From positions 124,001 to 188,000 of the forward strand of contig NW_027437431.1 in the NCBI RefSeq assembly GCF_964204645.1: a stretch of DNA of 64,000 nucleotides, given 5' to 3'. A program made the translations under genes and the position numbers. Numbering within the stretch: position 1 is the first letter of the stretch; each line of letters starts with the position of its first letter. This document shows, piece after piece, positions 1-56,628 of the stretch. This DNA is from Tubulanus polymorphus. Taxonomy: Eukaryota; Animalia; Nemertea. The notes beneath the pieces are model-generated. The model searched no databases. It saw only the letters and a list, made by a program, of their open reading frames with translations, and was not told the origin of the DNA.

Positions 1-2
1 AT

Positions 3-893
3 CAGACATTTTTGGACAGTGCTTCGGGTGTGAACGGTGTAGGTGCGAGACTAACGTCGAGTGTATTCAGAGCAAAACGGGCGTTATTTCCAACAATGGC
101 GGAAGAACCGGCATTAAAAAGATCAAAGAGAACGGCGGAAACGGGGAGCGAAGAAGGGAACGCCCAACAAATGATGACTCACATGACGGAAAAGCCGTCA
201 CTACACTATAAGAGCGTGTTAATACATAGAGGTTACCTAACGTTTACGAATTGGGATCCGGACCAGGCGTACGGAGCATTCGGAAGAAAAGCGAAGATTT
301 ACTGTTCGGGAATGAGAACGTTTAACTTCGGATTAAAAGAAAGAGAAGGATGGAGAAGATTTCCAGCCAGCATGGATACCATAGGGATGTGGGATCAATT
401 CAAAGTGACTTCGGGTAAAATAACGTTATACCCCATAGCGAGCGAAAGCGCGGTAAGCTCTGATTCGAACGCGTTCCAAGATCCGATAGTATGGTTAAAG
501 ACGGCAGCCGATTGGGACTTGAAAGTGAAAGACTCGGCCGCCAATACTCACCAGGGATCGCCGTACGCCGATATAAATTTATTAACTCAAAAGCAAAGCT
601 ACAGGCAATACGAATTAGGTCGGGGATGCGTTAGCATGGGATTACCCATGTCGACCATAAGAACCGAAATACAAGACACGAGTGACCCGACAGACGTTAC
701 CAGATCGGTGAATATCGGGGATAACTCGGCGTGGTTAGACGGAGCGTACCGCGATCATTGGCAATCAGCCGCGCTCATTATGCAAATGTTAGTGTACAAC
801 GATTCGATACACGCGGATTTAAACACGCCCCATACAGAAATTATCGTTCCAGCGGAAGTGGAGTTTACGATGATTCATAGAAACAGAGTATAA
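3..893 (+). CDS. Capsid protein, copy 1 (5'-truncated by window edge)
   Basis: Identical to the C-terminal part of the 360-aa ORF in later copies. Confidence 0.85.
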   Translation, partial: QTFLDSASGVNGVGARLTSSVFRAKRALFPTMAEEPALKRSKRTAETGSEEGNAQQMMTHMTEKPSLHYKSVLIHRGYLTFTNWDPDQAYGAFGRKAKIYCSGMRTFNFGLKEREGWRRFPASMDTIGMWDQFKVTSGKITLYPIASESAVSSDSNAFQDPIVWLKTAADWDLKVKDSAANTHQGSPYADINLLTQKQSYRQYELGRGCVSMGLPMSTIRTEIQDTSDPTDVTRSVNIGDNSAWLDGAYRDHWQSAALIMQMLVYNDSIHADLNTPHTEIIVPAEVEFTMIHRNRV

Positions 894-894
894 T

Positions 895-1203
895 ATGATA
901 ATAACTTTCCTATTCTTGGCATCCGGTTTCCTACACGAGTACAAGTGGCACGTATATACTAAACGTATCATGAGTAGAACGCAACGATTCATGAAAATAA
1001 GAGACGAAGTGGCGAACGAGTGGGTCATCAAACACGACGTCAACGAAAATCGGGTACTAAGGGAACAACACATTACAGAAGTAGCGAAAAGGATATTCTA
1101 CTACCGGGAAAAACAATGGGAACTAAGTCGAGAAACTGGTCGTTCACAACCGACAATCGAGCAGAAGTCTGCCTCGAAAGTCAAATCGGAACGTCAACAG
1201 TAA
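895..1203 (+). CDS. Small accessory ORF (102 aa, or 77 aa from ATG 970) overlapping the Rep 5' end; repeated every 3406 bp (4301, 7707 ... 48579)
   Basis: ATG lies 1 nt after the capsid stop and the ORF fills the cap-rep gap. Charged, helical-looking sequence with no recognisable motif. Intact in all 15 copies, but the copies are near-identical so this is weak evidence. Confidence 0.45.
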   Translation: MIITFLFLASGFLHEYKWHVYTKRIMSRTQRFMKIRDEVANEWVIKHDVNENRVLREQHITEVAKRIFYYREKQWELSRETGRSQPTIEQKSASKVKSERQQ

Positions 1204-2519
1204 CCGTACACATAGGTCCGCAAGAAGATCCGGACGGTTACGCGCACGGAGTAATAATAACGTTAGCCAAAGGTACGCAACGACCGTTGAAACAGAGCGA
1301 AAACGCGATTAGACAACTGTTACACTCGCTAGGCATTAGATTAGTTAACGACTACATCAAACCGACGGAAAAATTAGGCGCCTACATTCAATACATGTAC
1401 AAAGAAGCCGACAAAATACCGGAAGAATTACGAGGTCACTTGGAGGTGAAAAACTCGAAAACGAACGACGACTTTTTCGGCCAAAAGATAAACGCGTTAT
1501 ACGCGGAATACCAACAAAGACCGGGACTAGCCGATTGGACGGCGAGAATAGTGAAGGAGTTCGGTTACAACGTACCCGAACTGAAAGTGAAAAGATCGTT
1601 TAAAAATTGGCCGGTAAGGGTAAAAGATATTACGAGAAACGCGGGTGACTTTGCGTTGAAAATGACGGACATAACAGAGCCGAAATTGACGCCGGAAATG
1701 GGAGTAGAAATTATAACGAAATGCCTGGATAACGTTCAATCGGCGATGTGGGATGGTAAACATATAAATAAACGTGACCTGCTGGTAATATTGGTGAACG
1801 CGGCGATCGAGGGAGGTACGAGTAAAATCAGAAACGCGCCTCATATAATATTTTACGGAGATGCCGGGTCTGGTAAATCGATGTTGGCTAAATTATTGTT
1901 CCCGGATTCGATTACGAGCCAAATGCCGACGGATTCGGAAGGCGTAGGAGCGTGCGAGATGGGAGGAGGACAACGTATATTCAAAGTCGACGACGCCAGC
2001 GACGCTTTTTGGCACAACTCGGGGTTGTTGTCGATGATACTCGCGATGTACCAGTCCACCTGGGAGGCAAAAGTACATTCTAGTAAACAAAGTAACCCGC
2101 CGTGTATGACGGTAATTACGACGAATTGTAAGAATCCGTTAGAGAAGTTCGCCTCTACAGTAGCTTTGGAAGCTGTGGAAAGGAGATTCTTGTCGGTGTA
2201 TTTCAAAGGTAAAGCAGATTTGGGAAACGTAGTTTACGACATTACGCCGGGCGTATGCGAAGAAATATTAGAAATAATAGTTAACGAAATTAGACAAGGT
2301 AGATATCTGGACAACCAAGTCCACTTGGACGACTGGGAAACGGATGATGACGTGGTGATACCGTTCGAAAAAGAAAGAAACTTCATCGAAGCGTACCACG
2401 TAGGTCACATGTCGGACGCGATGCATCAGAATATGGAGGAAAGGTTAAAACGTAAACGTAAAGAAGAAGACGATACGAATGAAACTCTTAAGTTCGCTAA
2501 ACGCGGGGAAATCCTGTAG
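1116..2519 (+). CDS. rep: Replication initiator protein (HUH endonuclease + SF3 helicase), copy 1
   Basis: First ATG (1116, ACAATGG Kozak context) gives 467 aa. RCR motif I SRNWSFT, motif II-like GYAHG, motif III YIQYMYK, Walker A GDAGSGKS, Walker B FKVDD, motif C VITTN, Arg finger ERRF, C-terminal KRKRK NLS. The ORF track starts at GTG 1020. Confidence 0.9.
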   Translation: MGTKSRNWSFTTDNRAEVCLESQIGTSTVTVHIGPQEDPDGYAHGVIITLAKGTQRPLKQSENAIRQLLHSLGIRLVNDYIKPTEKLGAYIQYMYKEADKIPEELRGHLEVKNSKTNDDFFGQKINALYAEYQQRPGLADWTARIVKEFGYNVPELKVKRSFKNWPVRVKDITRNAGDFALKMTDITEPKLTPEMGVEIITKCLDNVQSAMWDGKHINKRDLLVILVNAAIEGGTSKIRNAPHIIFYGDAGSGKSMLAKLLFPDSITSQMPTDSEGVGACEMGGGQRIFKVDDASDAFWHNSGLLSMILAMYQSTWEAKVHSSKQSNPPCMTVITTNCKNPLEKFASTVALEAVERRFLSVYFKGKADLGNVVYDITPGVCEEILEIIVNEIRQGRYLDNQVHLDDWETDDDVVIPFEKERNFIEAYHVGHMSDAMHQNMEERLKRKRKEEDDTNETLKFAKRGEIL

Positions 2520-2530
2520 TTGGCAATGTA

Positions 2531-2536
2531 AATAAA
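2531..2536 (+). terminator. Polyadenylation signal AATAAA after rep (repeated in each unit)
   Basis: AATAAA begins 12 nt downstream of the rep stop codon. Confidence 0.6.
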
Positions 2537-2576
2537 TCTATAAATAGAATTCTATAAATTTCTCAATTCGTTACTA

Positions 2577-2690
2577 CCAGTGGACCCGCAGACCCGCGGA
2601 CCCACTGGCTGTTCGTTTTTCATGGTCTACCCCCCCTTATATATATAATAAGGAAAGAGAAGGAGGGTCCGCGGGTCCGCGGGTCTGCGG
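2577..2690. promoter_or_regulatory. Candidate replication origin/promoter: inverted GC-rich iterons flanking a TATA-rich stem-loop (each unit)
   Basis: Perfect 18-bp inverted repeat CCGCAGACCCGCGGACCC (2586-2603) / GGGTCCGCGGGTCTGCGG (2673-2690), built of 8-bp GACCCGCR units. Central CCTTAT-ATATATA-ATAAGG stem-loop (2635-2653). Additional CCAGTGG/CCACTGG stem (2577-2608). Confidence 0.6.
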
Positions 2691-2774
2691 TATTCTCTAA
2701 ACCGAGAATCGAAAAGTTAATGAAACTAGGTCGGAAAGATAACAAATTATTATTCAATATATCCTAAAGCTTCT

Positions 2775-2824
2775 ACGAGGTTGGTCACGCGCTCGCTACG
2801 CTCGCCAGCGTGACACAACCTCGT
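2775..2824. promoter_or_regulatory. 16-bp-stem hairpin with GCTC-repeat loop (each unit)
   Basis: ACGAGGTTG-GTCACGC pairs with GCGTGAC-A-CAACCTCGT (one bulge). Loop is GCTCGCTACGCTCGCCA. Confidence 0.6.
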
Positions 2825-3216
2825 GGACGCTCCAAAGATAATGAGTATGTGCTTGATAATGAGTGAATTAATTGGGAACCCTATAGCGGGTAAAAGGTAA
2901 GAAGTAGAAATTATAGGGTTAGGGGTTATCATTATACTCGGATGCCCACAGCCCGTGGTGGTCTGTGACAGTGGAGGTTAGTTAAAGTTCGAGGCGTGTG
3001 ACTAGTCGGGGGGAATAACATAGGCGGCTACGCCGCGATAGTTAGTCGGCAAGGTCGGCTGCGCCTCCGGCGGTACAGATTACATCTGAGTGTATTAGTC
3101 TACCAACGGAAGCCCAAACCCTAAATAATATTAGTCGGAAAAATCTGAGTTAGAGGGTCGCAACCGGTTCAAACAATTTAACATCTCATACAGGTGACTC
3201 GTACTTTTAGTATCAA

Positions 3217-4299
3217 ATGCCATCGTTGAAACGGAGGCGAAACGGATTTACATTGCCCGGTTTACCACATTGCGGTCCATTCAACGATATATCCAGTTAC
3301 AAAAGCGAAGGAATAGACGAAGTGTGCCGTATTCACGACAAAGAGTACGGAGAACTGCAAGAGAAATACGGTAAATGGGCTCCGTACTTCCAGTACAATT
3401 CAGCGGATCAGACATTTTTGGACAGTGCTTCGGGTGTGAACGGTGTAGGTGCGAGACTAACGTCGAGTGTATTCAGAGCAAAACGGGCGTTATTTCCAAC
3501 AATGGCGGAAGAACCGGCATTAAAAAGATCAAAGAGAACGGCGGAAACGGGGAGCGAAGAAGGGAACGCCCAACAAATGATGACTCACATGACGGAAAAG
3601 CCGTCACTACACTATAAGAGCGTGTTAATACATAGAGGTTACCTAACGTTTACGAATTGGGATCCGGACCAGGCGTACGGAGCATTCGGAAGAAAAGCGA
3701 AGATTTACTGTTCGGGAATGAGAACGTTTAACTTCGGATTAAAAGAAAGAGAAGGATGGAGAAGATTTCCAGCCAGCATGGATACCATAGGGATGTGGGA
3801 TCAATTCAAAGTGACTTCGGGTAAAATAACGTTATACCCCATAGCGAGCGAAAGCGCGGTAAGCTCTGATTCGAACGCGTTCCAAGATCCGATAGTATGG
3901 TTAAAGACGGCAGCCGATTGGGACTTGAAAGTGAAAGACTCGGCCGCCAATACTCACCAGGGATCGCCGTACGCCGATATAAATTTATTAACTCAAAAGC
4001 AAAGCTACAGGCAATACGAATTAGGTCGGGGATGCGTTAGCATGGGATTACCCATGTCGACCATAAGAACCGAAATACAAGACACGAGTGACCCGACAGA
4101 CGTTACCAGATCGGTGAATATCGGGGATAACTCGGCGTGGTTAGACGGAGCGTACCGCGATCATTGGCAATCAGCCGCGCTCATTATGCAAATGTTAGTG
4201 TACAACGATTCGATACACGCGGATTTAAACACGCCCCATACAGAAATTATCGTTCCAGCGGAAGTGGAGTTTACGATGATTCATAGAAACAGAGTATAA
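3217..4299 (+). CDS. Capsid protein with N-terminal parvovirus-type phospholipase A2 (VP1u-like), copy 2
   Basis: LPGLPHCGPFN (Ca-binding loop), DEVCRIHDKEY (catalytic HD), PYFQYNSADQTF and VFRAKR follow the parvoviral VP1u PLA2 pattern. Internal strong-Kozak ATG at 3502 (MAEEPALKRSKR) gives a 265-aa product with WDQFKVTSGKITLYP, resembling the conserved strand of CRESS/circovirus-like jelly-roll capsids. Confidence 0.88.
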   Translation: MPSLKRRRNGFTLPGLPHCGPFNDISSYKSEGIDEVCRIHDKEYGELQEKYGKWAPYFQYNSADQTFLDSASGVNGVGARLTSSVFRAKRALFPTMAEEPALKRSKRTAETGSEEGNAQQMMTHMTEKPSLHYKSVLIHRGYLTFTNWDPDQAYGAFGRKAKIYCSGMRTFNFGLKEREGWRRFPASMDTIGMWDQFKVTSGKITLYPIASESAVSSDSNAFQDPIVWLKTAADWDLKVKDSAANTHQGSPYADINLLTQKQSYRQYELGRGCVSMGLPMSTIRTEIQDTSDPTDVTRSVNIGDNSAWLDGAYRDHWQSAALIMQMLVYNDSIHADLNTPHTEIIVPAEVEFTMIHRNRV

Positions 4300-4521
4300 T
4301 ATGATAATAACTTTCCTATTCTTGGCATCCGGTTTCCTACACGAGTACAAGTGGCACGTATATACTAAACGTATCATGAGTAGAACGCAACGATTCATGA
4401 AAATAAGAGACGAAGTGGCGAACGAGTGGGTCATCAAACACGACGTCAACGAAAATCGGGTACTAAGGGAACAACACATTACAGAAGTAGCGAAAAGGAT
4501 ATTCTACTACCGGGAAAAACA

Positions 4522-5925
4522 ATGGGAACTAAGTCGAGAAACTGGTCGTTCACAACCGACAATCGAGCAGAAGTCTGCCTCGAAAGTCAAATCGGAACGT
4601 CAACAGTAACCGTACACATAGGTCCGCAAGAAGATCCGGACGGTTACGCGCACGGAGTAATAATAACGTTAGCCAAAGGTACGCAACGACCGTTGAAACA
4701 GAGCGAAAACGCGATTAGACAACTGTTACACTCGCTAGGCATTAGATTAGTTAACGACTACATCAAACCGACGGAAAAATTAGGCGCCTACATTCAATAC
4801 ATGTACAAAGAAGCCGACAAAATACCGGAAGAATTACGAGGTCACTTGGAGGTGAAAAACTCGAAAACGAACGACGACTTTTTCGGCCAAAAGATAAACG
4901 CGTTATACGCGGAATACCAACAAAGACCGGGACTAGCCGATTGGACGGCGAGAATAGTGAAGGAGTTCGGTTACAACGTACCCGAACTGAAAGTGAAAAG
5001 ATCGTTTAAAAATTGGCCGGTAAGGGTAAAAGATATTACGAGAAACGCGGGTGACTTTGCGTTGAAAATGACGGACATAACAGAGCCGAAATTGACGCCG
5101 GAAATGGGAGTAGAAATTATAACGAAATGCCTGGATAACGTTCAATCGGCGATGTGGGATGGTAAACATATAAATAAACGTGACCTGCTGGTAATATTGG
5201 TGAACGCGGCGATCGAGGGAGGTACGAGTAAAATCAGAAACGCGCCTCATATAATATTTTACGGAGATGCCGGGTCTGGTAAATCGATGTTGGCTAAATT
5301 ATTGTTCCCGGATTCGATTACGAGCCAAATGCCGACGGATTCGGAAGGCGTAGGAGCGTGCGAGATGGGAGGAGGACAACGTATATTCAAAGTCGACGAC
5401 GCCAGCGACGCTTTTTGGCACAACTCGGGGTTGTTGTCGATGATACTCGCGATGTACCAGTCCACCTGGGAGGCAAAAGTACATTCTAGTAAACAAAGTA
5501 ACCCGCCGTGTATGACGGTAATTACGACGAATTGTAAGAATCCGTTAGAGAAGTTCGCCTCTACAGTAGCTTTGGAAGCTGTGGAAAGGAGATTCTTGTC
5601 GGTGTATTTCAAAGGTAAAGCAGATTTGGGAAACGTAGTTTACGACATTACGCCGGGCGTATGCGAAGAAATATTAGAAATAATAGTTAACGAAATTAGA
5701 CAAGGTAGATATCTGGACAACCAAGTCCACTTGGACGACTGGGAAACGGATGATGACGTGGTGATACCGTTCGAAAAAGAAAGAAACTTCATCGAAGCGT
5801 ACCACGTAGGTCACATGTCGGACGCGATGCATCAGAATATGGAGGAAAGGTTAAAACGTAAACGTAAAGAAGAAGACGATACGAATGAAACTCTTAAGTT
5901 CGCTAAACGCGGGGAAATCCTGTAG
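4522..5925 (+). CDS. rep: Rep, copy 2
   Basis: Protein identical to copy 1. Confidence 0.9.
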   Translation: MGTKSRNWSFTTDNRAEVCLESQIGTSTVTVHIGPQEDPDGYAHGVIITLAKGTQRPLKQSENAIRQLLHSLGIRLVNDYIKPTEKLGAYIQYMYKEADKIPEELRGHLEVKNSKTNDDFFGQKINALYAEYQQRPGLADWTARIVKEFGYNVPELKVKRSFKNWPVRVKDITRNAGDFALKMTDITEPKLTPEMGVEIITKCLDNVQSAMWDGKHINKRDLLVILVNAAIEGGTSKIRNAPHIIFYGDAGSGKSMLAKLLFPDSITSQMPTDSEGVGACEMGGGQRIFKVDDASDAFWHNSGLLSMILAMYQSTWEAKVHSSKQSNPPCMTVITTNCKNPLEKFASTVALEAVERRFLSVYFKGKADLGNVVYDITPGVCEEILEIIVNEIRQGRYLDNQVHLDDWETDDDVVIPFEKERNFIEAYHVGHMSDAMHQNMEERLKRKRKEEDDTNETLKFAKRGEIL

Positions 5926-6622
5926 TTGGCAATGTAAATAAATCTATAAATAGAATTCTATAAATTTCTCAATTCGTTACTACCAGTGGACCCGCAGACC
6001 CGCGGACCCACTGGCTGTTCGTTTTTCATGGTCTACCCCCCCTTATATATATAATAAGGAAAGAGAAGGAGGGTCCGCGGGTCCGCGGGTCTGCGGTATT
6101 CTCTAAACCGAGAATCGAAAAGTTAATGAAACTAGGTCGGAAAGATAACAAATTATTATTCAATATATCCTAAAGCTTCTACGAGGTTGGTCACGCGCTC
6201 GCTACGCTCGCCAGCGTGACACAACCTCGTGGACGCTCCAAAGATAATGAGTATGTGCTTGATAATGAGTGAATTAATTGGGAACCCTATAGCGGGTAAA
6301 AGGTAAGAAGTAGAAATTATAGGGTTAGGGGTTATCATTATACTCGGATGCCCACAGCCCGTGGTGGTCTGTGACAGTGGAGGTTAGTTAAAGTTCGAGG
6401 CGTGTGACTAGTCGGGGGGAATAACATAGGCGGCTACGCCGCGATAGTTAGTCGGCAAGGTCGGCTGCGCCTCCGGCGGTACAGATTACATCTGAGTGTA
6501 TTAGTCTACCAACGGAAGCCCAAACCCTAAATAATATTAGTCGGAAAAATCTGAGTTAGAGGGTCGCAACCGGTTCAAACAATTTAACATCTCATACAGG
6601 TGACTCGTACTTTTAGTATCAA

Positions 6623-7705
6623 ATGCCATCGTTGAAACGGAGGCGAAACGGATTTACATTGCCCGGTTTACCACATTGCGGTCCATTCAACGATATATCC
6701 AGTTACAAAAGCGAAGGAATAGACGAAGTGTGCCGTATTCACGACAAAGAGTACGGAGAACTGCAAGAGAAATACGGTAAATGGGCTCCGTACTTCCAGT
6801 ACAATTCAGCGGATCAGACATTTTTGGACAGTGCTTCGGGTGTGAACGGTGTAGGTGCGAGACTAACGTCGAGTGTATTCAGAGCAAAACGGGCGTTATT
6901 TCCAACAATGGCGGAAGAACCGGCATTAAAAAGATCAAAGAGAACGGCGGAAACGGGGAGCGAAGAAGGGAACGCCCAACAAATGATGACTCACATGACG
7001 GAAAAGCCGTCACTACACTATAAGAGCGTGTTAATACATAGAGGTTACCTAACGTTTACGAATTGGGATCCGGACCAGGCGTACGGAGCATTCGGAAGAA
7101 AAGCGAAGATTTACTGTTCGGGAATGAGAACGTTTAACTTCGGATTAAAAGAAAGAGAAGGATGGAGAAGATTTCCAGCCAGCATGGATACCATAGGGAT
7201 GTGGGATCAATTCAAAGTGACTTCGGGTAAAATAACGTTATACCCCATAGCGAGCGAAAGCGCGGTAAGCTCTGATTCGAACGCGTTCCAAGATCCGATA
7301 GTATGGTTAAAGACGGCAGCCGATTGGGACCTGAAAGTGAAAGACTCGGCCGCCAATACTCACCAGGGATCGCCGTACGCCGATATAAATTTATTAACTC
7401 AAAAGCAAAGCTACAGGCAATACGAATTAGGTCGGGGATGCGTTAGCATGGGATTACCCATGTCGACCATAAGAACCGAAATACAAGACACGAGTGACCC
7501 GACAGACGTTACCAGATCGGTGAATATCGGGGATAACTCGGCGTGGTTAGACGGAGCGTACCGCGATCATTGGCAATCAGCCGCGCTCATTATGCAAATG
7601 TTAGTGTACAACGATTCGATACACGCGGATTTAAACACGCCCCATACAGAAATTATCGTTCCAGCGGAAGTGGAGTTTACGATGATTCATAGAAACAGAG
7701 TATAA
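6623..7705 (+). CDS. PLA2-capsid protein, copy 3
   Basis: Identical protein; synonymous T>C at 7331. Confidence 0.88.
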   Translation: MPSLKRRRNGFTLPGLPHCGPFNDISSYKSEGIDEVCRIHDKEYGELQEKYGKWAPYFQYNSADQTFLDSASGVNGVGARLTSSVFRAKRALFPTMAEEPALKRSKRTAETGSEEGNAQQMMTHMTEKPSLHYKSVLIHRGYLTFTNWDPDQAYGAFGRKAKIYCSGMRTFNFGLKEREGWRRFPASMDTIGMWDQFKVTSGKITLYPIASESAVSSDSNAFQDPIVWLKTAADWDLKVKDSAANTHQGSPYADINLLTQKQSYRQYELGRGCVSMGLPMSTIRTEIQDTSDPTDVTRSVNIGDNSAWLDGAYRDHWQSAALIMQMLVYNDSIHADLNTPHTEIIVPAEVEFTMIHRNRV

Positions 7706-7927
7706 TATGATAATAACTTTCCTATTCTTGGCATCCGGTTTCCTACACGAGTACAAGTGGCACGTATATACTAAACGTATCATGAGTAGAACGCAACGAT
7801 TCATGAAAATAAGAGACGAAGTGGCGAACGAGTGGGTCATCAAACACGACGTCAACGAAAATCGGGTACTAAGGGAACAACACATTACAGAAGTAGCGAA
7901 AAGGATATTCTACTACCGGGAAAAACA

Positions 7928-9331
7928 ATGGGAACTAAGTCGAGAAACTGGTCGTTCACAACCGACAATCGAGCAGAAGTCTGCCTCGAAAGTCAAATCG
8001 GAACGTCAACAGTAACCGTACACATAGGTCCGCAAGAAGATCCGGACGGTTACGCGCACGGAGTAATAATAACGTTAGCCAAAGGTACGCAACGACCGTT
8101 GAAACAGAGCGAAAACGCGATTAGACAACTGTTACACTCGCTAGGCATTAGATTAGTTAACGACTACATCAAACCGACGGAAAAATTAGGCGCCTACATT
8201 CAATACATGTACAAAGAAGCCGACAAAATACCGGAAGAATTACGAGGTCACTTGGAGGTGAAAAACTCGAAAACGAACGACGACTTTTTCGGCCAAAAGA
8301 TAAACGCGTTATACGCGGAATACCAACAAAGACCGGGACTAGCCGATTGGACGGCGAGAATAGTGAAGGAGTTCGGTTACAACGTACCCGAACTGAAAGT
8401 GAAAAGATCGTTTAAAAATTGGCCGGTAAGGGTAAAAGATATTACGAGAAACGCGGGTGACTTTGCGTTGAAAATGACGGACATAACAGAGCCGAAATTG
8501 ACGCCGGAAATGGGAGTAGAAATTATAACGAAATGCCTGGATAACGTTCAATCGGCGATGTGGGATGGTAAACATATAAATAAACGTGACCTGCTGGTAA
8601 TATTGGTGAACGCGGCGATCGAGGGAGGTACGAGTAAAATCAGAAACGCGCCTCATATAATATTTTACGGAGATGCCGGGTCTGGTAAATCGATGTTGGC
8701 TAAATTATTGTTCCCGGATTCGATTACGAGCCAAATGCCGACGGATTCGGAAGGCGTAGGAGCGTGCGAGATGGGAGGAGGACAACGTATATTCAAAGTC
8801 GACGACGCCAGCGACGCTTTTTGGCACAACTCGGGGTTGTTGTCGATGATACTCGCGATGTACCAGTCCACCTGGGAGGCAAAAGTACATTCTAGTAAAC
8901 AAAGTAACCCGCCGTGTATGACGGTAATTACGACGAATTGTAAGAATCCGTTAGAGAAGTTCGCCTCTACAGTAGCTTTGGAAGCTGTGGAAAGGAGATT
9001 CTTGTCGGTGTATTTCAAAGGTAAAGCAGATTTGGGAAACGTAGTTTACGACATTACGCCGGGCGTATGCGAAGAAATATTAGAAATAATAGTTAACGAA
9101 ATTAGACAAGGTAGATATCTGGACAACCAAGTCCACTTGGACGACTGGGAAACGGATGATGACGTGGTGATACCGTTCGAAAAAGAAAGAAACTTCATCG
9201 AAGCGTACCACGTAGGTCACATGTCGGACGCGATGCATCAGAATATGGAGGAAAGGTTAAAACGTAAACGTAAAGAAGAAGACGATACGAATGAAACTCT
9301 TAAGTTCGCTAAACGCGGGGAAATCCTGTAG
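7928..9331 (+). CDS. rep: Rep, copy 3
   Basis: Identical protein. Confidence 0.9.
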   Translation: MGTKSRNWSFTTDNRAEVCLESQIGTSTVTVHIGPQEDPDGYAHGVIITLAKGTQRPLKQSENAIRQLLHSLGIRLVNDYIKPTEKLGAYIQYMYKEADKIPEELRGHLEVKNSKTNDDFFGQKINALYAEYQQRPGLADWTARIVKEFGYNVPELKVKRSFKNWPVRVKDITRNAGDFALKMTDITEPKLTPEMGVEIITKCLDNVQSAMWDGKHINKRDLLVILVNAAIEGGTSKIRNAPHIIFYGDAGSGKSMLAKLLFPDSITSQMPTDSEGVGACEMGGGQRIFKVDDASDAFWHNSGLLSMILAMYQSTWEAKVHSSKQSNPPCMTVITTNCKNPLEKFASTVALEAVERRFLSVYFKGKADLGNVVYDITPGVCEEILEIIVNEIRQGRYLDNQVHLDDWETDDDVVIPFEKERNFIEAYHVGHMSDAMHQNMEERLKRKRKEEDDTNETLKFAKRGEIL

Positions 9332-10028
9332 TTGGCAATGTAAATAAATCTATAAATAGAATTCTATAAATTTCTCAATTCGTTACTACCAGTGGACCCG
9401 CAGACCCGCGGACCCACTGGCTGTTCGTTTTTCATGGTCTACCCCCCCTTATATATATAATAAGGAAAGAGAAGGAGGGTCCGCGGGTCCGCGGGTCTGC
9501 GGTATTCTCTAAACCGAGAATCGAAAAGTTAATGAAACTAGGTCGGAAAGATAACAAATTATTATTCAATATATCCTAAAGCTTCTACGAGGTTGGTCAC
9601 GCGCTCGCTACGCTCGCCAGCGTGACACAACCTCGTGGACGCTCCAAAGATAATGAGTATGTGCTTGATAATGAGTGAATTAATTGGGAACCCTATAGCG
9701 GGTAAAAGGTAAGAAGTAGAAATTATAGGGTTAGGGGTTATCATTATACTCGGATGCCCACAGCCCGTGGTGGTCTGTGACAGTGGAGGTTAGTTAAAGT
9801 TCGAGGCGTGTGACTAGTCGGGGGGAATAACATAGGCGGCTACGCCGCGATAGTTAGTCGGCAAGGTCGGCTGCGCCTCCGGCGGTACAGATTACATCTG
9901 AGTGTATTAGTCTACCAACGGAAGCCCAAACCCTAAATAATATTAGTCGGAAAAATCTGAGTTAGAGGGTCGCAACCGGTTCAAACAATTTAACATCTCA
10001 TACAGGTGACTCGTACTTTTAGTATCAA

Positions 10029-11111: not shown

Positions 11112-11333
11112 TATGATAATAACTTTCCTATTCTTGGCATCCGGTTTCCTACACGAGTACAAGTGGCACGTATATACTAAACGTATCATGAGTAGAACGC
11201 AACGATTCATGAAAATAAGAGACGAAGTGGCGAACGAGTGGGTCATCAAACACGACGTCAACGAAAATCGGGTACTAAGGGAACAACACATTACAGAAGT
11301 AGCGAAAAGGATATTCTACTACCGGGAAAAACA

Positions 11334-38359: not shown

Positions 38360-38581
38360 TATGATAATAACTTTCCTATTCTTGGCATCCGGTTTCCTAC
38401 ACGAGTACAAGTGGCACGTATATACTAAACGTATCATGAGTAGAACGCAACGATTCATGAAAATAAGAGACGAAGTGGCGAACGAGTGGGTCATCAAACA
38501 CGACGTCAACGAAAATCGGGTACTAAGGGAACAACACATTACAGAAGTAGCGAAAAGGATATTCTACTACCGGGAAAAACA

Positions 38582-41765: not shown

Positions 41766-41987
41766 TATGATAATAACTTTCCTATTCTTGGCATCCGGTT
41801 TCCTACACGAGTACAAGTGGCACGTATATACTAAACGTATCATGAGTAGAACGCAACGATTCATGAAAATAAGAGACGAAGTGGCGAACGAGTGGGTCAT
41901 CAAACACGACGTCAACGAAAATCGGGTACTAAGGGAACAACACATTACAGAAGTAGCGAAAAGGATATTCTACTACCGGGAAAAACA

Positions 41988-43391
41988 ATGGGAACTAAGT
42001 CGAGAAACTGGTCGTTCACAACCGACAATCGAGCAGAAGTCTGCCTCGAAAGTCAAATCGGAACGTCAACAGTAACCGTACACATAGGTCCGCAAGAAGA
42101 TCCGGACGGTTACGCGCACGGAGTAATAATAACGTTAGCCAAAGGTACGCAACGACCGTTGAAACAGAGCGAAAACGCGATTAGACAACTGTTACACTCG
42201 CTAGGCATTAGATTAGTTAACGACTACATCAAACCGACGGAAAAATTAGGCGCCTACATTCAATACATGTACAAAGAAGCCGACAAAATACCGGAAGAAT
42301 TACGAGGTCACTTGGAGGTGAAAAACTCGAAAACGAACGACGACTTTTTCGGCCAAAAGATAAACGCGTTATACGCGGAATACCAACAAAGACCGGGACT
42401 AGCCGATTGGACGGCGAGAATAGTGAAGGAGTTCGGTTACAACGTACCCGAACTGAAAGTGAAAAGATCGTTTAAAAATTGGCCGGTAAGGGTAAAAGAT
42501 ATTACGAGAAACGCGGGTGACTTTGCGTTGAAAATGACGGACATAACAGAGCCGAAATTGACGCCGGAAATGGGAGTAGAAATTATAACGAAATGCCTGG
42601 ATAACGTTCAATCGGCGATGTGGGATGGTAAACATATAAATAAACGTGACCTGCTGGTAATATTGGTGAACGCGGCGATCGAGGGAGGTACGAGTAAAAT
42701 CAGAAACGCGCCTCATATAATATTTTACGGAGATGCCGGGTCTGGTAAATCGATGTTGGCTAAATTATTGTTCCCGGATTCGATTACGAGCCAAATGCCG
42801 ACGGATTCGGAAGGCGTAGGAGCGTGCGAGATGGGAGGAGGACAACGTATATTCAAAGTCGACGACGCCAGCGACGCTTTTTGGCACAACTCGGGGTTGT
42901 TGTCGATGATACTCGCGATGTACCAGTCCACCTGGGAGGCAAAAGTACATTCTAGTAAACAAAGTAACCCGCCGTGTATGACGGTAATTACGACGAATTG
43001 TAAGAATCCGTTAGAGAAGTTCGCCTCTACAGTAGCTTTGGAAGCTGTGGAAAGGAGATTCTTGTCGGTGTATTTCAAAGGTAAAGCAGATTTGGGAAAC
43101 GTAGTTTACGACATTACGCCGGGCGTATGCGAAGAAATATTAGAAATAATAGTTAACGAAATTAGACAAGGTAGATATCTGGACAACCAAGTCCACTTGG
43201 ACGACTGGGAAACGGATGATGACGTGGTGATACCGTTCGAAAAAGAAAGAAACTTCATCGAAGCGTACCACGTAGGTCACATGTCGGACGCGATGCATCA
43301 GAATATGGAGGAAAGGTTAAAACGTAAACGTAAAGAAGAAGACGATACGAATGAAACTCTTAAGTTCGCTAAACGCGGGGAAATCCTGTAG
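41988..43391 (+). CDS. rep: Rep, copy 13
   Basis: Identical protein. Confidence 0.9.
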   Translation: MGTKSRNWSFTTDNRAEVCLESQIGTSTVTVHIGPQEDPDGYAHGVIITLAKGTQRPLKQSENAIRQLLHSLGIRLVNDYIKPTEKLGAYIQYMYKEADKIPEELRGHLEVKNSKTNDDFFGQKINALYAEYQQRPGLADWTARIVKEFGYNVPELKVKRSFKNWPVRVKDITRNAGDFALKMTDITEPKLTPEMGVEIITKCLDNVQSAMWDGKHINKRDLLVILVNAAIEGGTSKIRNAPHIIFYGDAGSGKSMLAKLLFPDSITSQMPTDSEGVGACEMGGGQRIFKVDDASDAFWHNSGLLSMILAMYQSTWEAKVHSSKQSNPPCMTVITTNCKNPLEKFASTVALEAVERRFLSVYFKGKADLGNVVYDITPGVCEEILEIIVNEIRQGRYLDNQVHLDDWETDDDVVIPFEKERNFIEAYHVGHMSDAMHQNMEERLKRKRKEEDDTNETLKFAKRGEIL

Positions 43392-44088
43392 TTGGCAATG
43401 TAAATAAATCTATAAATAGAATTCTATAAATTTCTCAATTCGTTACTACCAGTGGACCCGCAGACCCGCGGACCCACTGGCTGTTCGTTTTTCATGGTCT
43501 ACCCCCCCTTATATATATAATAAGGAAAGAGAAGGAGGGTCCGCGGGTCCGCGGGTCTGCGGTATTCTCTAAACCGAGAATCGAAAAGTTAATGAAACTA
43601 GGTCGGAAAGATAACAAATTATTATTCAATATATCCTAAAGCTTCTACGAGGTTGGTCACGCGCTCGCTACGCTCGCCAGCGTGACACAACCTCGTGGAC
43701 GCTCCAAAGATAATGAGTATGTGCTTGATAATGAGTGAATTAATTGGGAACCCTATAGCGGGTAAAAGGTAAGAAGTAGAAATTATAGGGTTAGGGGTTA
43801 TCATTATACTCGGATGCCCACAGCCCGTGGTGGTCTGTGACAGTGGAGGTTAGTTAAAGTTCGAGGCGTGTGACTAGTCGGGGGGAATAACATAGGCGGC
43901 TACGCCGCGATAGTTAGTCGGCAAGGTCGGCTGCGCCTCCGGCGGTACAGATTACATCTGAGTGTATTAGTCTACCAACGGAAGCCCAAACCCTAAATAA
44001 TATTAGTCGGAAAAATCTGAGTTAGAGGGTCGCAACCGGTTCAAACAATTTAACATCTCATACAGGTGACTCGTACTTTTAGTATCAA

Positions 44089-45171
44089 ATGCCATCGTTG
44101 AAACGGAGGCGAAACGGATTTACATTGCCCGGTTTACCACATTGCGGTCCATTCAACGATATATCCAGTTACAAAAGCGAAGGAATAGACGAAGTGTGCC
44201 GTATTCACGACAAAGAGTACGGAGAACTGCAAGAGAAATACGGTAAATGGGCTCCGTACTTCCAGTACAATTCAGCGGATCAGACATTTTTGGACAGTGC
44301 TTCGGGTGTGAACGGTGTAGGTGCGAGACTAACGTCGAGTGTATTCAGAGCAAAACGGGCGTTATTTCCAACAATGGCGGAAGAACCGGCATTAAAAAGA
44401 TCAAAGAGAACGGCGGAAACGGGGAGCGAAGAAGGGAACGCCCAACAAATGATGACTCACATGACGGAAAAGCCGTCACTACACTATAAGAGCGTGTTAA
44501 TACATAGAGGTTACCTAACGTTTACGAATTGGGATCCGGACCAGGCGTACGGAGCATTCGGAAGAAAAGCGAAGATTTACTGTTCGGGAATGAGAACGTT
44601 TAACTTCGGATTAAAAGAAAGAGAAGGATGGAGAAGATTTCCAGCCAGCATGGATACCATAGGGATGTGGGATCAATTCAAAGTGACTTCGGGTAAAATA
44701 ACGTTATACCCCATAGCGAGCGAAAGCGCGGTAAGCTCTGATTCGAACGCGTTCCAAGATCCGATAGTATGGTTAAAGACGGCAGCCGATTGGGACTTGA
44801 AAGTGAAAGACTCGGCCGCCAATACTCACCAGGGATCGCCGTACGCCGATATAAATTTATTAACTCAAAAGCAAAGCTACAGGCAATACGAATTAGGTCG
44901 GGGATGCGTTAGCATGGGATTACCCATGTCGACCATAAGAACCGAAATACAAGACACGAGTGACCCGACAGACGTTACCAGATCGGTGAATATCGGGGAT
45001 AACTCGGCGTGGTTAGACGGAGCGTACCGCGATCATTGGCAATCAGCCGCGCTCATTATGCAAATTTTAGTGTACAACGATTCGATACACGCGGATTTAA
45101 ACACGCCCCATACAGAAATTATCGTTCCAGCGGAAGTGGAGTTTACGATGATTCATAGAAACAGAGTATAA
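44089..45171 (+). CDS. PLA2-capsid protein, copy 14 (M326I)
   Basis: G>T at 45066. Confidence 0.88.
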   Translation: MPSLKRRRNGFTLPGLPHCGPFNDISSYKSEGIDEVCRIHDKEYGELQEKYGKWAPYFQYNSADQTFLDSASGVNGVGARLTSSVFRAKRALFPTMAEEPALKRSKRTAETGSEEGNAQQMMTHMTEKPSLHYKSVLIHRGYLTFTNWDPDQAYGAFGRKAKIYCSGMRTFNFGLKEREGWRRFPASMDTIGMWDQFKVTSGKITLYPIASESAVSSDSNAFQDPIVWLKTAADWDLKVKDSAANTHQGSPYADINLLTQKQSYRQYELGRGCVSMGLPMSTIRTEIQDTSDPTDVTRSVNIGDNSAWLDGAYRDHWQSAALIMQILVYNDSIHADLNTPHTEIIVPAEVEFTMIHRNRV

Positions 45172-45393
45172 TATGATAATAACTTTCCTATTCTTGGCAT
45201 CCGGTTTCCTACACGAGTACAAGTGGCACGTATATACTAAACGTATCATGAGTAGAACGCAACGATTCATGAAAATAAGAGACGAAGTGGCGAACGAGTG
45301 GGTCATCAAACACGACGTCAACGAAAATCGGGTACTAAGGGAACAACACATTACAGAAGTAGCGAAAAGGATATTCTACTACCGGGAAAAACA

Positions 45394-46797
45394 ATGGGAA
45401 CTAAGTCGAGAAACTGGTCGTTCACAACCGACAATCGAGCAGAAGTCTGCCTCGAAAGTCAAATCGGAACGTCAACAGTAACCGTACACATAGGTCCGCA
45501 AGAAGATCCGGACGGTTACGCGCACGGAGTAATAATAACGTTAGCCAAAGGTACGCAACGACCGTTGAAACAGAGCGAAAACGCGATTAGACAACTGTTA
45601 CACTCGCTAGGCATTAGATTAGTTAACGACTACATCAAACCGACGGAAAAATTAGGCGCCTACATTCAATACATGTACAAAGAAGCCGACAAAATACCGG
45701 AAGAATTACGAGGTCACTTGGAGGTGAAAAACTCGAAAACGAACGACGACTTTTTCGGCCAAAAGATAAACGCGTTATACGCGGAATACCAACAAAGACC
45801 GGGACTAGCCGATTGGACGGCGAGAATAGTGAAGGAGTTCGGTTACAACGTACCCGAACTGAAAGTGAAAAGATCGTTTAAAAATTGGCCGGTAAGGGTA
45901 AAAGATATTACGAGAAACGCGGGTGACTTTGCGTTGAAAATGACGGACATAACAGAGCCGAAATTGACGCCGGAAATGGGAGTAGAAATTATAACGAAAT
46001 GCCTGGATAACGTTCAATCGGCGATGTGGGATGGTAAACATATAAATAAACGTGACCTGCTGGTAATATTGGTGAACGCGGCGATCGAGGGAGGTACGAG
46101 TAAAATCAGAAACGCGCCTCATATAATATTTTACGGAGATGCCGGGTCTGGTAAATCGATGTTGGCTAAATTATTGTTCCCGGATTCGATTACGAGCCAA
46201 ATGCCGACGGATTCGGAAGGCGTAGGAGCGTGCGAGATGGGAGGAGGACAACGTATATTCAAAGTCGACGACGCCAGCGACGCTTTTTGGCACAACTCGG
46301 GGTTGTTGTCGATGATACTCGCGATGTACCAGTCCACCTGGGAGGCAAAAGTACATTCTAGTAAACAAAGTAACCCGCCGTGTATGACGGTAATTACGAC
46401 GAATTGTAAGAATCCGTTAGAGAAGTTCGCCTCTACAGTAGCTTTGGAAGCTGTGGAAAGGAGATTCTTGTCGGTGTATTTCAAAGGTAAAGCAGATTTG
46501 GGAAACGTAGTTTACGACATTACGCCGGGCGTATGCGAAGAAATATTAGAAATAATAGTTAACGAAATTAGACAAGGTAGATATCTGGACAACCAAGTCC
46601 ACTTGGACGACTGGGAAACGGATGATGACGTGGTGATACCGTTCGAAAAAGAAAGAAACTTCATCGAAGCGTACCACGTAGGTCACATGTCGGACGCGAT
46701 GCATCAGAATATGGAGGAAAGGTTAAAACGTAAACGTAAAGAAGAAGACGATACGAATGAAACTCTTAAGTTCGCTAAACGCGGGGAAATCCTGTAG
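45394..46797 (+). CDS. rep: Rep, copy 14
   Basis: Identical protein. Confidence 0.9.
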   Translation: MGTKSRNWSFTTDNRAEVCLESQIGTSTVTVHIGPQEDPDGYAHGVIITLAKGTQRPLKQSENAIRQLLHSLGIRLVNDYIKPTEKLGAYIQYMYKEADKIPEELRGHLEVKNSKTNDDFFGQKINALYAEYQQRPGLADWTARIVKEFGYNVPELKVKRSFKNWPVRVKDITRNAGDFALKMTDITEPKLTPEMGVEIITKCLDNVQSAMWDGKHINKRDLLVILVNAAIEGGTSKIRNAPHIIFYGDAGSGKSMLAKLLFPDSITSQMPTDSEGVGACEMGGGQRIFKVDDASDAFWHNSGLLSMILAMYQSTWEAKVHSSKQSNPPCMTVITTNCKNPLEKFASTVALEAVERRFLSVYFKGKADLGNVVYDITPGVCEEILEIIVNEIRQGRYLDNQVHLDDWETDDDVVIPFEKERNFIEAYHVGHMSDAMHQNMEERLKRKRKEEDDTNETLKFAKRGEIL

Positions 46798-47494
46798 TTG
46801 GCAATGTAAATAAATCTATAAATAGAATTCTATAAATTTCTCAATTCGTTACTACCAGTGGACCCGCAGACCCGCGGACCCACTGGCTGTTCGTTTTTCA
46901 TGGTCTACCCCCCCTTATATATATAATAAGGAAAGAGAAGGAGGGTCCGCGGGTCCGCGGGTCTGCGGTATTCTCTAAACCGAGAATCGAAAAGTTAATG
47001 AAACTAGGTCGGAAAGATAACAAATTATTATTCAATATATCCTAAAGCTTCTACGAGGTTGGTCACGCGCTCGCTACGCTCGCCAGCGTGACACAACCTC
47101 GTGGACGCTCCAAAGATAATGAGTATGTGCTTGATAATGAGTGAATTAATTGGGAACCCTATAGCGGGTAAAAGGTAAGAAGTAGAAATTATAGGGTTAG
47201 GGGTTATCATTATACTCGGATGCCCACAGCCCGTGGTGGTCTGTGACAGTGGAGGTTAGTTAAAGTTCGAGGCGTGTGACTAGTCGGGGGGAATAACATA
47301 GGCGGCTACGCCGCGATAGTTTGTCGGCAAGGTCGGCTGCGCCTCCGGCGGTACAGATTACATCTGAGTGTATTAGTCTACCAACGGAAGCCCAAACCCT
47401 AAATAATATTAGTCGGAAAAATCTGAGTTAGAGGGTCGCAACCGGTTCAAACAATTTAACATCTCATACAGGTGACTCGTACTTTTAGTATCAA

Positions 47495-48577
47495 ATGCCA
47501 TCGTTGAAACGGAGGCGAAACGGATTTACATTGCCCGGTTTACCACATTGCGGTCCATTCAACGATATATCCAGTTACAAAAGCGAAGGAATAGACGAAG
47601 TGTGCCGTATTCACGACAAAGAGTACGGAGAACTGCAAGAGAAATACGGTAAATGGGCTCCGTACTTCCAGTACAATTCAGCGGATCAGACATTTTTGGA
47701 CAGTGCTTCGGGTGTGAACGGTGTAGGTGCGAGACTAACGTCGAGTGTATTCAGAGCAAAACGGGCGTTATTTCCAACAATGGCGGAAGAACCGGCATTA
47801 AAAAGATCAAAGAGAACGGCGGAAACGGGGAGCGAAGAAGGGAACGCCCAACAAATGATGACTCACATGACGGAAAAGCCGTCACTACACTATAAGAGCG
47901 TGTTAATACATAGAGGTTACCTAACGTTTACGAATTGGGATCCGGACCAGGCGTACGGAGCATTCGGAAGAAAAGCGAAGATTTACTGTTCGGGAATGAG
48001 AACGTTTAACTTCGGATTAAAAGAAAGAGAAGGATGGAGAAGATTTCCAGCCAGCATGGATACCATAGGGATGTGGGATCAATTCAAAGTGACTTCGGGT
48101 AAAATAACGTTATACCCCATAGCGAGCGAAAGCGCGGTAAGCTCTGATTCGAACGCGTTCCAAGATCCGATAGTATGGTTAAAGACGGCAGCCGATTGGG
48201 ACTTGAAAGTGAAAGACTCGGCCGCCAATACTCACCAGGGATCGCCGTACGCCGATATAAATTTATTAACTCAAAAGCAAAGCTACAGGCAATACGAATT
48301 AGGTCGGGGATGCGTTAGCATGGGATTACCCATGTCGACCATAAGAACCGAAATACAAGACACGAGTGACCCGACAGACGTTACCAGATCGGTGAATATC
48401 GGGGATAACTCGGCGTGGTTAGACGGAGCGTACCGCGATCATTGGCAATCAGCCGCGCTCATTATGCAAATGTTAGTGTACAACGATTCGATACACGCGG
48501 ATTTAAACACGCCCCATACAGAAATTATCGTTCCAGCGGAAGTGGAGTTTACGATGATTCATAGAAACAGAGTATAA
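47495..48577 (+). CDS. PLA2-capsid protein, copy 15
   Basis: Identical protein. Confidence 0.88.
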   Translation: MPSLKRRRNGFTLPGLPHCGPFNDISSYKSEGIDEVCRIHDKEYGELQEKYGKWAPYFQYNSADQTFLDSASGVNGVGARLTSSVFRAKRALFPTMAEEPALKRSKRTAETGSEEGNAQQMMTHMTEKPSLHYKSVLIHRGYLTFTNWDPDQAYGAFGRKAKIYCSGMRTFNFGLKEREGWRRFPASMDTIGMWDQFKVTSGKITLYPIASESAVSSDSNAFQDPIVWLKTAADWDLKVKDSAANTHQGSPYADINLLTQKQSYRQYELGRGCVSMGLPMSTIRTEIQDTSDPTDVTRSVNIGDNSAWLDGAYRDHWQSAALIMQMLVYNDSIHADLNTPHTEIIVPAEVEFTMIHRNRV

Positions 48578-48799
48578 TATGATAATAACTTTCCTATTCT
48601 TGGCATCCGGTTTCCTACACGAGTACAAGTGGCACGTATATACTAAACGTATCATGAGTAGAACGCAACGATTCATGAAAATAAGAGACGAAGTGGCGAA
48701 CGAGTGGGTCATCAAACACGACGTCAACGAAAATCGGGTACTAAGGGAACAACACATTACAGAAGTAGCGAAAAGGATATTCTACTACCGGGAAAAACA

Positions 48800-50203
48800 A
48801 TGGGAACTAAGTCGAGAAACTGGTCGTTCACAACCGACAATCGAGCAGAAGTCTGCCTCGAAAGTCAAATCGGAACGTCAACAGTAACCGTACACATAGG
48901 TCCGCAAGAAGATCCGGACGGTTACGCGCACGGAGTAATAATAACGTTAGCCAAAGGTACGCAACGACCGTTGAAACAGAGCGAAAACGCGATTAGACAA
49001 CTGTTACACTCGCTAGGCATTAGATTAGTTAACGACTACATCAAACCGACGGAAAAATTAGGCGCCTACATTCAATACATGTACAAAGAAGCCGACAAAA
49101 TACCGGAAGAATTACGAGGTCACTTGGAGGTGAAAAACTCGAAAACGAACGACGACTTTTTCGGCCAAAAGATAAACGCGTTATACGCGGAATACCAACA
49201 AAGACCGGGACTAGCCGATTGGACGGCGAGAATAGTGAAGGAGTTCGGTTACAACGTACCCGAACTGAAAGTGAAAAGATCGTTTAAAAATTGGCCGGTA
49301 AGGGTAAAAGATATTACGAGAAACGCGGGTGACTTTGCGTTGAAAATGACGGACATAACAGAGCCGAAATTGACGCCGGAAATGGGAGTAGAAATTATAA
49401 CGAAATGCCTGGATAACGTTCAATCGGCGATGTGGGATGGTAAACATATAAATAAACGTGACCTGCTGGTAATATTGGTGAACGCGGCGATCGAGGGAGG
49501 TACGAGTAAAATCAGAAACGCGCCTCATATAATATTTTACGGAGATGCCGGGTCTGGTAAATCGATGTTGGCTAAATTATTGTTCCCGGATTCGATTACG
49601 AGCCAAATGCCGACGGATTCGGAAGGCGTAGGAGCGTGCGAGATGGGAGGAGGACAACGTATATTCAAAGTCGACGACGCCAGCGACGCTTTTTGGCACA
49701 ACTCGGGGTTGTTGTCGATGATACTCGCGATGTACCAGTCCACCTGGGAGGCAAAAGTACATTCTAGTAAACAAAGTAACCCGCCGTGTATGACGGTAAT
49801 TACGACGAATTGTAAGAATCCGTTAGAGAAGTTCGCCTCTACAGTAGCTTTGGAAGCTGTGGAAAGGAGATTCTTGTCGGTGTATTTCAAAGGTAAAGCA
49901 GATTTGGGAAACGTAGTTTACGACATTACGCCGGGCGTATGCGAAGAAATATTAGAAATAATAGTTAACGAAATTAGACAAGGTAGATATCTGGACAACC
50001 AAGTCCACTTGGACGACTGGGAAACGGATGATGACGTGGTGATACCGTTCGAAAAAGAAAGAAACTTCATCGAAGCGTACCACGTAGGTCACATGTCGGA
50101 CGCGATGCATCAGAATATGGAGGAAAGGTTAAAACGTAAACGTAAAGAAGAAGACGATACGAATGAAACTCTTAAGTTCGCTAAACGCGGGGAAATCCTG
50201 TAG
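48800..50203 (+). CDS. rep: Rep, copy 15
   Basis: Identical protein. Confidence 0.9.
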   Translation: MGTKSRNWSFTTDNRAEVCLESQIGTSTVTVHIGPQEDPDGYAHGVIITLAKGTQRPLKQSENAIRQLLHSLGIRLVNDYIKPTEKLGAYIQYMYKEADKIPEELRGHLEVKNSKTNDDFFGQKINALYAEYQQRPGLADWTARIVKEFGYNVPELKVKRSFKNWPVRVKDITRNAGDFALKMTDITEPKLTPEMGVEIITKCLDNVQSAMWDGKHINKRDLLVILVNAAIEGGTSKIRNAPHIIFYGDAGSGKSMLAKLLFPDSITSQMPTDSEGVGACEMGGGQRIFKVDDASDAFWHNSGLLSMILAMYQSTWEAKVHSSKQSNPPCMTVITTNCKNPLEKFASTVALEAVERRFLSVYFKGKADLGNVVYDITPGVCEEILEIIVNEIRQGRYLDNQVHLDDWETDDDVVIPFEKERNFIEAYHVGHMSDAMHQNMEERLKRKRKEEDDTNETLKFAKRGEIL

Positions 50204-50599
50204 TTGGCAATGTAAATAAATCTATAAATAGAATTCTATAAATTTCTCAATTCGTTACTACCAGTGGACCCGCAGACCCGCGGACCCACTGGCTGTTCGT
50301 TTTTCATGGTCTACCCCCCCTTATATATATAATAAGGAAAGAGAAGGAGGGTCCGCGGGTCCGCGGGTCTGCGGTATTCTCTAAACCGAGAATCGAAAAG
50401 TTAATGAAACTAGGTCGGAAAGATAACAAAGCGTATCTTATTTATAAAAAGGTTTAGATTTTATATTATATCTCTTTTAAAGTTGTGAAACTAATTCCTG
50501 TTTCACGCAATATAAATCTAAATATCAATTTATTTAATACTGTAAACGTTGAATTAAAGGAAGAAATAACAGTTGATCCTTCAGTTTTGATAAATCTTT

Positions 50600-51298: not shown

Positions 51299-51314
51299 TT
51301 ATTTTACATATTTT

Positions 51315-52265: not shown

Positions 52266-52315
52266 GATGTGTAACCAATGCCAACTTAGAGGAAGACCGC
52301 TCTGCGCACAAGCGC

Positions 52316-56602: not shown

Positions 56603-56628
56603 AATATATGAAATTAAAAGATGCTGTT

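Follow-up and report, generated by a model that had tools for sequence, protein, structure and literature searches.

How does the complete genome of a small DNA virus come to fill 50 kb of an assembled animal contig in nearly identical copies, and is it truly part of a chromosome there? The question is raised by a 64,000-nt window of the nemertean Tubulanus polymorphus (assembly GCF_964204645.1, contig NW_027437431.1, positions 124,001 to 188,000), whose positions 1..50430 are occupied by a plus-strand, head-to-tail array of a viral unit with a period of 3406 bp. On balance, we favour the view that the array represents a recent chromosomal insertion of a rolling-circle concatemer of an intact, unclassified small DNA virus. 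Chromosomal residence as such seems probable, and the array probably sits on one homologue only, hence is hemizygous. The virus, combining a replication protein (Rep) of the HUH nuclease/superfamily 3 (SF3) helicase type with a capsid protein that bears a phospholipase A2 (PLA2) domain, is on sequence grounds an unclassified lineage.

The array is strikingly regular. Self-match at a lag of 3406 is 99.97% over 45 kb, as compared to at most 0.29 at lags except 3406 and 6812, and the last array base lies exactly at 50430, equivalent to 14.81 units. Because the window begins within cap and the array runs on upstream of it, the ~14.8 copies counted in an earlier note on this DNA stand as a lower bound (at least 14.8). 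Each unit is exactly one whole viral genome, without host DNA, and contains three open reading frames (ORFs), all on the plus strand: cap, a small ORF and rep. The uninterrupted genes and scarce substitutions that the note had claimed are borne out by the absence of internal stops from all complete copies of cap (14), the small ORF (15) and rep (15), by the absence of any indel across the array, and by only seven variable columns carrying eight variant letters (at 7331, 11699, 27072, 30478, 34261, 41666, 45066 and 47322). Pairwise, the 14 complete copies differ by 0–3 bases (mean 1.1), in agreement with the note's description of a very recent, intact multi-copy array of a single-stranded DNA (ssDNA) virus. 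Rep is identical in 15 of 15 copies and cap has three amino-acid variants; the GC content is 45% in the array and 21–41% beyond it. As a separate observation in small numbers, cap, which makes up 32% of the unit, holds five of the seven variable columns, Rep is unchanged, and six of the seven changes are transversions. Methylation-driven decay of the array was considered and rejected, since none of the seven variants is a CpG transition, even though the unit has a CpG observed/expected ratio of 1.54.

Seven mutations in 50.4 kb correspond to 1.4e-4 per site, which at mutation rates typical of animals would place the age of the array at no more than about 10^4–10^5 generations, and lower if some of the variants arose while the virus was replicating. 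Each variant is confined to particular copies at set positions, and no spacing between variants exceeds 15.4 kb, a pattern that would be expected of a clonal array phasable by long reads, unlike a pool of free circles. One variant is common to the neighbouring copies 8 and 9 and shows local duplication or conversion. It could therefore be argued that the host amplified the array from one or two chromosomal copies by unequal exchange, in the manner of a satellite, with Rep uninvolved and the array silent or a source of small RNA. The repeat-rich surroundings would suit such an origin, and a tandem geminiviral array of yam yields small interfering RNAs (PMC5014472). We nevertheless regard host amplification as unlikely. 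The unit would often be expected to include flanking DNA or partial copies, yet it is one whole genome; the other six variants are singletons, with neither a gradient nor a higher-order period across the copies; and the other strains of the virus, described below, likewise occur in many copies with little variation inside any one sample, as though this were characteristic of the virus.

At its single visible end, the array passes into host sequence at 50430..50431 without gap or filler. The junction corresponds to unit coordinate 6152, between two hairpins of the intergenic region, in an inter-hairpin gap that makes up ~2% of the unit; this is a single event and its position was noticed after the fact. 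A scaffold gap at the junction is ruled out by the absence of any N from the whole window, and the unit and the flank have in common only chance 24-nt matches. That the junction shows neither an N nor a common repeat capable of causing a misjoin supports the chromosomal reading. The flank contains ORFs of a retroviral-type protease and of the long interspersed nuclear element (LINE) type, so that the clean junction to transposon-rich DNA reported in the note is upheld.

Sequencing runs provide evidence outside the assembly. Among 11 listed runs, five hold part of the interval 47025-51800, three of them half or more, and four of the five derive from one organism and one study. X1 is the possible assembly source, X2–X4 represent a second sample, and X6 is an Illumina whole-genome sequencing (WGS) run from another study. 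No RNA run is among those that contain the interval, and X7 and X8 yielded no aligned reads, which says nothing of expression; depths were compared in X1–X3 and X6, and X5, with a share of 0.05, is left out of account. In X1 the unit forms one closed contig of depth 1980, compared to 56–73 in four flank contigs containing no other letters (27–35x). The corresponding values, with one flank contig each, are 332 and 15 in X2 (22x), and 1107 and 35 in X3 (31x). Taken as a rough guide, the X1 depth suggests ~30 copies per haploid genome, or ~55 on one homologue. Depth along the unit in X2 and X3 tracks the combined density of GATC and GANTC (Spearman 0.94, n=6, and 0.82, n=7; the best of three covariates), and thus reads as Hi-C of double-stranded nuclear DNA, a library type assigned from this coverage.

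These data bear on the possibility, named in the earlier note among the findings that would refute its interpretation, that a free viral circle gave rise to concatemer and junction through phi29 whole-genome amplification. On circular templates phi29 is known to yield perfect head-to-tail multimers, and X1 has no recorded library type. That said, the strain occurs at a similar, modest ratio to the host in three runs of the second sample, with the restriction-site-linked, Hi-C-like coverage of X2 and X3; the 50-kb array contains no inversion; and in the unrelated X6 run of 2026 a sister strain reaches high depth. An amplification artefact thus appears very improbable.

Several observations weigh against a chromosomal concatemer and need to be set beside those in its favour. 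Depths of contigs give only approximate values and come with a warning against their use for copy number; X1, as the possible source of the assembly, is not independent. Only one end of the array can be seen in the window. None of X1–X3 has a contig leading from virus to flank, the sole joint at 50430 being the one that returns to the unit start, and in a 536-nt contig of X1 the flank, matched exactly, continues into 204 non-viral letters. In X2–X4 the immediate flank is nearly missing (shares held of 0.70, 0.70 and 0.44; the virus alone would give 0.71). Lastly, a canonical rolling-circle origin was not found in the unit, which has two strong hairpins without the nonanucleotide. Part of this evidence admits of another explanation. 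The end-to-start joint present in X1–X3 would be given equally by a tandem array. Logan contigs drop rare branches, which makes the absence of a bridging contig weak evidence, although a misjoin predicts it too. The 536-nt contig, which overlaps by 2 nt with the window's sequence at the 50430/50431 junction, has a depth of 56.5 as compared to 55.9 expected for a half-depth empty allele; it is either such an allele or, if the window is misjoined, the true sequence. Immediate flank at 50481-50696 has a depth of 0–0.45 in X2 and X3, for which low GC (17–22%) together with scarce cut sites could account.

The same observations are those on which an episomal explanation draws, according to which the virus exists as free double-stranded circles or multimers in the nucleus and the assembler created both the concatemer and its host join by way of a rare or chimeric read. 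In its favour, the unit closes as a loop in X1–X3 with no listed host branch, a contig that matches the flank in full runs on into non-viral DNA, and, as detailed next, the strains differ in a manner fitting a circulating virus and a third sample (X6) is without reads of the window's strain over much of the unit. It is difficult to reconcile, however, with variants that mark individual copies at constant positions, close enough together for reads to connect, with the similarity of the virus-to-host ratio in two samples, and with a joint devoid of gap or common sequence. We therefore consider free episomes quite unlikely as the origin of the assembled array, and retain the chromosomal concatemer as the preferred reading.

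X6, of which 12% was read as raw Illumina reads, lacks the window's strain: several bins are empty, and just 6 of the 2382 aligned reads are 99% alike to it. Instead, it has a related strain at a depth of up to ~227, where low-copy flank bins reach ~2–5, and its reads all agree in their differences from the window. In X1, additional strains are present at depths of 453 and 81. Altogether, at least three further strains occur under the same species label (X1 and X6, over 47025-50780), mostly less than 90% alike to that of the window. Among the differences listed within cap, 30 of 43 fall at third codon positions (p 1e-6), a bias which implies that purifying selection acted on functional viruses while the strains diverged. 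Identity of the second X1 strain with the X6 strain was considered, all 16 listed differences at 47605-47777 being common to both, and was dismissed because the two disagree, by eye, just upstream.

What kind of virus is it? The 467-aa Rep (4522..5925 in the copy taken as example, plus strand) shows HUH-type nuclease motifs followed by helical domains and an SF3 helicase. The former comprise a motif I-like WSFT, an xHG and a YxxK, the latter Walker A and B, motif C and an arginine finger; the protein thus reads as HUH motifs I–III fused to an SF3 helicase, with the nuclease assigned by motifs. A 23-member alignment retains motif I in the form seen in circular Rep-encoding single-stranded (CRESS) DNA viruses, together with xHG/HxH, YxxK, Walker A/B, motif C and the arginine finger. 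At motif II, the window's Rep has xHG, whereas 8 of 22 relatives show the full HxH. No Pfam family matches the 467-aa Rep above cut-off, and among the 23 aligned members none matches Viral_Rep or Gemini_AL1 at E 0.1, none Parvo_NS1, and one RNA_helicase at 0.001. A word-indexed protein search returned nothing for Rep and, with the alignment as query, a single relative already found, while the full HMMER scan gave 48 relatives of 22–42% identity. Just one informative name emerged from the 30 of these looked up, a gene model of the tunicate Styela clava, and four of the 30 lie on European Nucleotide Archive (ENA) contigs of 126 kb, 175 kb, 647 kb and 1.9 Mb. Given the long contigs and the tunicate gene model, it is likely that the family integrates repeatedly. 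A quick tree of 22 rows, excluding P0019 of alignment A1 and short matches, placed the window's Rep in no supported group. Locus searches for Rep relatives gave none on viral contigs and, on metagenome contigs, only a 43-aa piece at an extreme contig end (L001, 5938-6066). This piece is 93% identical to the Rep relative P0003, and the remaining ORFs of its contig, from a marine metagenome, are phage-like by eye; it is probably a chimeric contig end, uninformative on gene order.

Structure prediction extends the comparison for the helicase, which the fold searches chiefly probed. The Rep model built from the alignment reached a predicted local distance difference test (pLDDT) score of 80.8, whereas that from the single sequence (33.6) was unusable. 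The former matches papillomavirus E1 with Z 13.1, a root-mean-square deviation (rmsd) of 3.5 and 183 aligned positions at 13% identity, Rep40 of adeno-associated virus (AAV) with Z 12.3, rmsd 3.5 and 179 aligned, and the Rep of porcine circovirus 2 (PCV2) with Z 8.5 and rmsd 3.1 over 125 residues, in the ATPase core only. B19 NS1 is also among the matches of the helicase module, and a search among predicted structures of viral proteins returns E1, parvoviral NS1 and CRESS Reps intermixed. The modelled helicase module is accordingly placed nearest to papillomavirus E1 and AAV Rep. ESM features provide only a lead, for CRESS, plasmid and parvoviral Reps score alike against this Rep (0.94–0.96).

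The capsid gene (3217..4299 in the example copy, plus strand) encodes 360 aa, with the PLA2 domain at aa 10–89 (PF08398, E 2.4e-11, bit score 44.2, cut-off 23.9). The best PDB matches of the domain are parvoviral VP1 chains (E 1.3e-12), with the His-Asp pair aligned. A second ATG at 3502 would yield a major capsid protein of 265 aa, a body for which no sequence match was found in the PDB; a word-indexed protein search with cap likewise had no matches. The nearest ESM Atlas cluster of the capsid is named 'Capsid protein', is PLA2-bearing and mostly cressdnaviricot (0.93), and there are leads to Viral_coat and Circo_capsid clusters, all below 0.9. PLA2 is described to act in endosome escape (PMC11903649). 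Between the two large genes, a small ORF of 102 aa (4301..4609, plus strand) overlaps the rep start and has no family match; searches of PHROGs and Rfam gave nothing useful. This ORF, the PLA2 domain and the two hairpins are additional to what the earlier note had listed.

Compared to shuffled versions of itself, the 697-bp intergenic region has a much stronger predicted fold (z -5.85). It includes an AATAAA polyadenylation-like signal (5937..5942, plus strand, 12 nt past the rep stop), no such signal being present after cap. Hairpin 1 (5982..6096, plus strand) has GC-rich octamer repeats in its arms and an AT-rich apex (z ~ -5 against letter shuffles), and hairpin 2 (6174..6237, plus strand) carries GCTC repeats in its loop (z ~ -6 against letter shuffles), which may resemble the AAV Rep-binding element. 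Hairpin 1 is a candidate origin or right end, hairpin 2 a candidate origin or left end; two adjacent hairpins flanking the junction fit the circularised ends of a linear genome and also a circular origin. A nonanucleotide stem-loop was not found, the lone near match on the plus strand (6532) being outside a stem. Five short repeats of the TAGTC/TAGGTC type at 6131-6545 are candidate Rep-binding iterons.

The analogy to CRESS viruses on which the earlier note relied is therefore sustained in part. It holds for the HUH/SF3 motifs, and it breaks down over the missing CRESS Pfam match, the E1/AAV-like helicase, the parvoviral PLA2 and the absence of a nonanucleotide stem-loop. At the sequence level, the virus falls outside the described CRESS families, Parvoviridae and Oomyviridae; judged by its motifs, it would nonetheless work like a rolling-circle HUH/SF3 virus.

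The sequence of events that would have led to the array can be envisaged as follows. The virus would replicate via a circular double-stranded form whose origin is located at the pair of intergenic hairpins, and long head-to-tail multimers would result from rolling-circle synthesis. One such multimer, broken or nicked between the hairpins, would have been end-joined into AT-rich repeat DNA. A later local exchange may then have copied one variant into two adjacent units, a step suggested by the variant common to copies 8 and 9. By analogy, expression of Rep or recombination between units would free unit-length circles; if Rep is made, release of unit length is to be expected, because every unit is whole and flanked by putative origins.

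Comparison with known systems reveals partial likeness in each case. A VP1-unique PLA2 is common, if not universal, in Parvoviridae, and AAV can integrate as head-to-tail arrays. The present virus is like them in the PLA2 placed before a second ATG, in a helicase similar to AAV Rep40 and B19 NS1, and in having two hairpins; it differs from Parvoviridae in the lack of a Parvo_NS1 match in its 23-member family, in the CRESS-like motif I and in a capsid body as short as 265 aa. Should the hairpins be ends, the gene order would be cap–rep, opposite to that usual in parvoviruses. Oomyviridae, as described in two reports (PMC13426907, PMC12451638), similarly unite a PLA2-bearing capsid with a non-parvoviral Rep, but they are linear, have a circovirus-homologous Rep and likely infect stramenopiles, whereas here Viral_Rep gives no sequence match and the surrounding transposons are of animal type; this comparison is by description. 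RepE1 cressviruses of sea anemones are circular, have an E1-like Rep and show high-copy integration beside retrotransposons (PMC11071296). Their integrated copies, by contrast, are fragmentary and highly rearranged, their Rep is BLAST-similar to E1 and their capsid hepevirus-like (PMC11071296); the array described here is unrearranged, its likeness to E1 is one of fold only, and its capsid has PLA2. Five short motifs of the Rep family were not found in six of the nine supplementary files of that study, and the other three could hold relatives (PMC11071296).

For the array as such, the closest parallels are in plants. Yam EGV1 has a 2.6-kb unit (rep, ren, intergenic region) in arrays possibly exceeding 23 kb with many reps intact, and it resembles the Nicotiana geminivirus-related DNA (GRD), and the present case, in that units of an ssDNA virus stand in direct tandem on a chromosome (PMC5014472). 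The same text describes the EGV1 copies as diverse and shared across species, and the GRD reps as degenerate and truncated (PMC5014472). Here, on the contrary, a whole intact genome with capsid is repeated with 99.97% likeness, and the strain is missing from another sample of the same species. Endogenous banana streak virus offers the parallel of a complete integrated virus able to start infection; it is a plant pararetrovirus of proven activation (PMC6355771), and release in the present case would be by analogy only.

The host flank (50431..64000) comprises AT-rich repeat, a high-copy short repeat, a 1.8-kb inverted duplication and the two transposon-type ORFs. The arms of the duplication (53582-55370 and 56425-58213) are 1789 bp in length, 99.7% identical and separated by a 1054-bp spacer. 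Each includes a minisatellite (24 bp x13) as well as an AT-rich ORF, stopped in one arm (207 compared to 254 aa); these ORFs had no Pfam match above cut-off and are reminiscent of Polinton/Maverick accessory genes. By eye, a GC-richer short motif at the outer arm ends (~58150-58200) recurs at ~52150-52245, and the insertion target of the virus (50431-52245) may derive from the AT-rich element family of the inverted arms. A very high-copy short inverted repeat at ~52730-52845, resembling a miniature inverted-repeat transposable element, reaches a bin depth of ~4000 in X6, with many different flanks. The retroviral-type aspartyl protease ORF lies at 58102-59097 (minus strand), and an ORF joining zinc knuckle and GDSL esterase, which we take to be a typical LINE ORF1, at 62526-63998 (plus strand). 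Judged by these ORFs, an animal is the likely host of the array.

Lastly, the finding has importance in suggesting how an ssDNA virus may persist in an animal. In the literature searched, with most subscription papers outside the search, no intact full-genome tandem array of an ssDNA virus was found in an animal, and the tandem endogenous precedents that were found are plant elements, incomplete or decayed; a tandemly integrated anellovirus reportedly exists in a human cell line, in a report that the search did not return. Endogenous ssDNA viral elements are usually defective (PMC13426907). If the chromosomal reading is true, an intact genome in tens of near-identical copies, accompanied by sister strains in another sample of the species, would represent endogenisation while it is happening. 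The question of a genuine latent proviral phase of ssDNA viruses in animals thereby becomes open to test, and the array could, by analogy, serve as a reservoir of latent virus. More tentatively, and with considerable doubt on our part, one may think of an undescribed family of animal ssDNA viruses, positioned between CRESS viruses and parvo-/papillomaviruses, for which chromosomal arrays are the normal latent phase, with strains polymorphic between individuals and unit-length genomes shed from the arrays; such a phase would constitute a proviral life cycle without integrase or reverse transcriptase. The Reps of parvo- and papillomaviruses have been proposed to derive from CRESS Reps (as cited in PMC11071296). 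The array ties its host to an unnamed Rep family, and the combination of CRESS-like motifs, an E1/AAV-type fold and a PLA2-bearing capsid bears on the origin of the parvo- and papillomavirus Reps.

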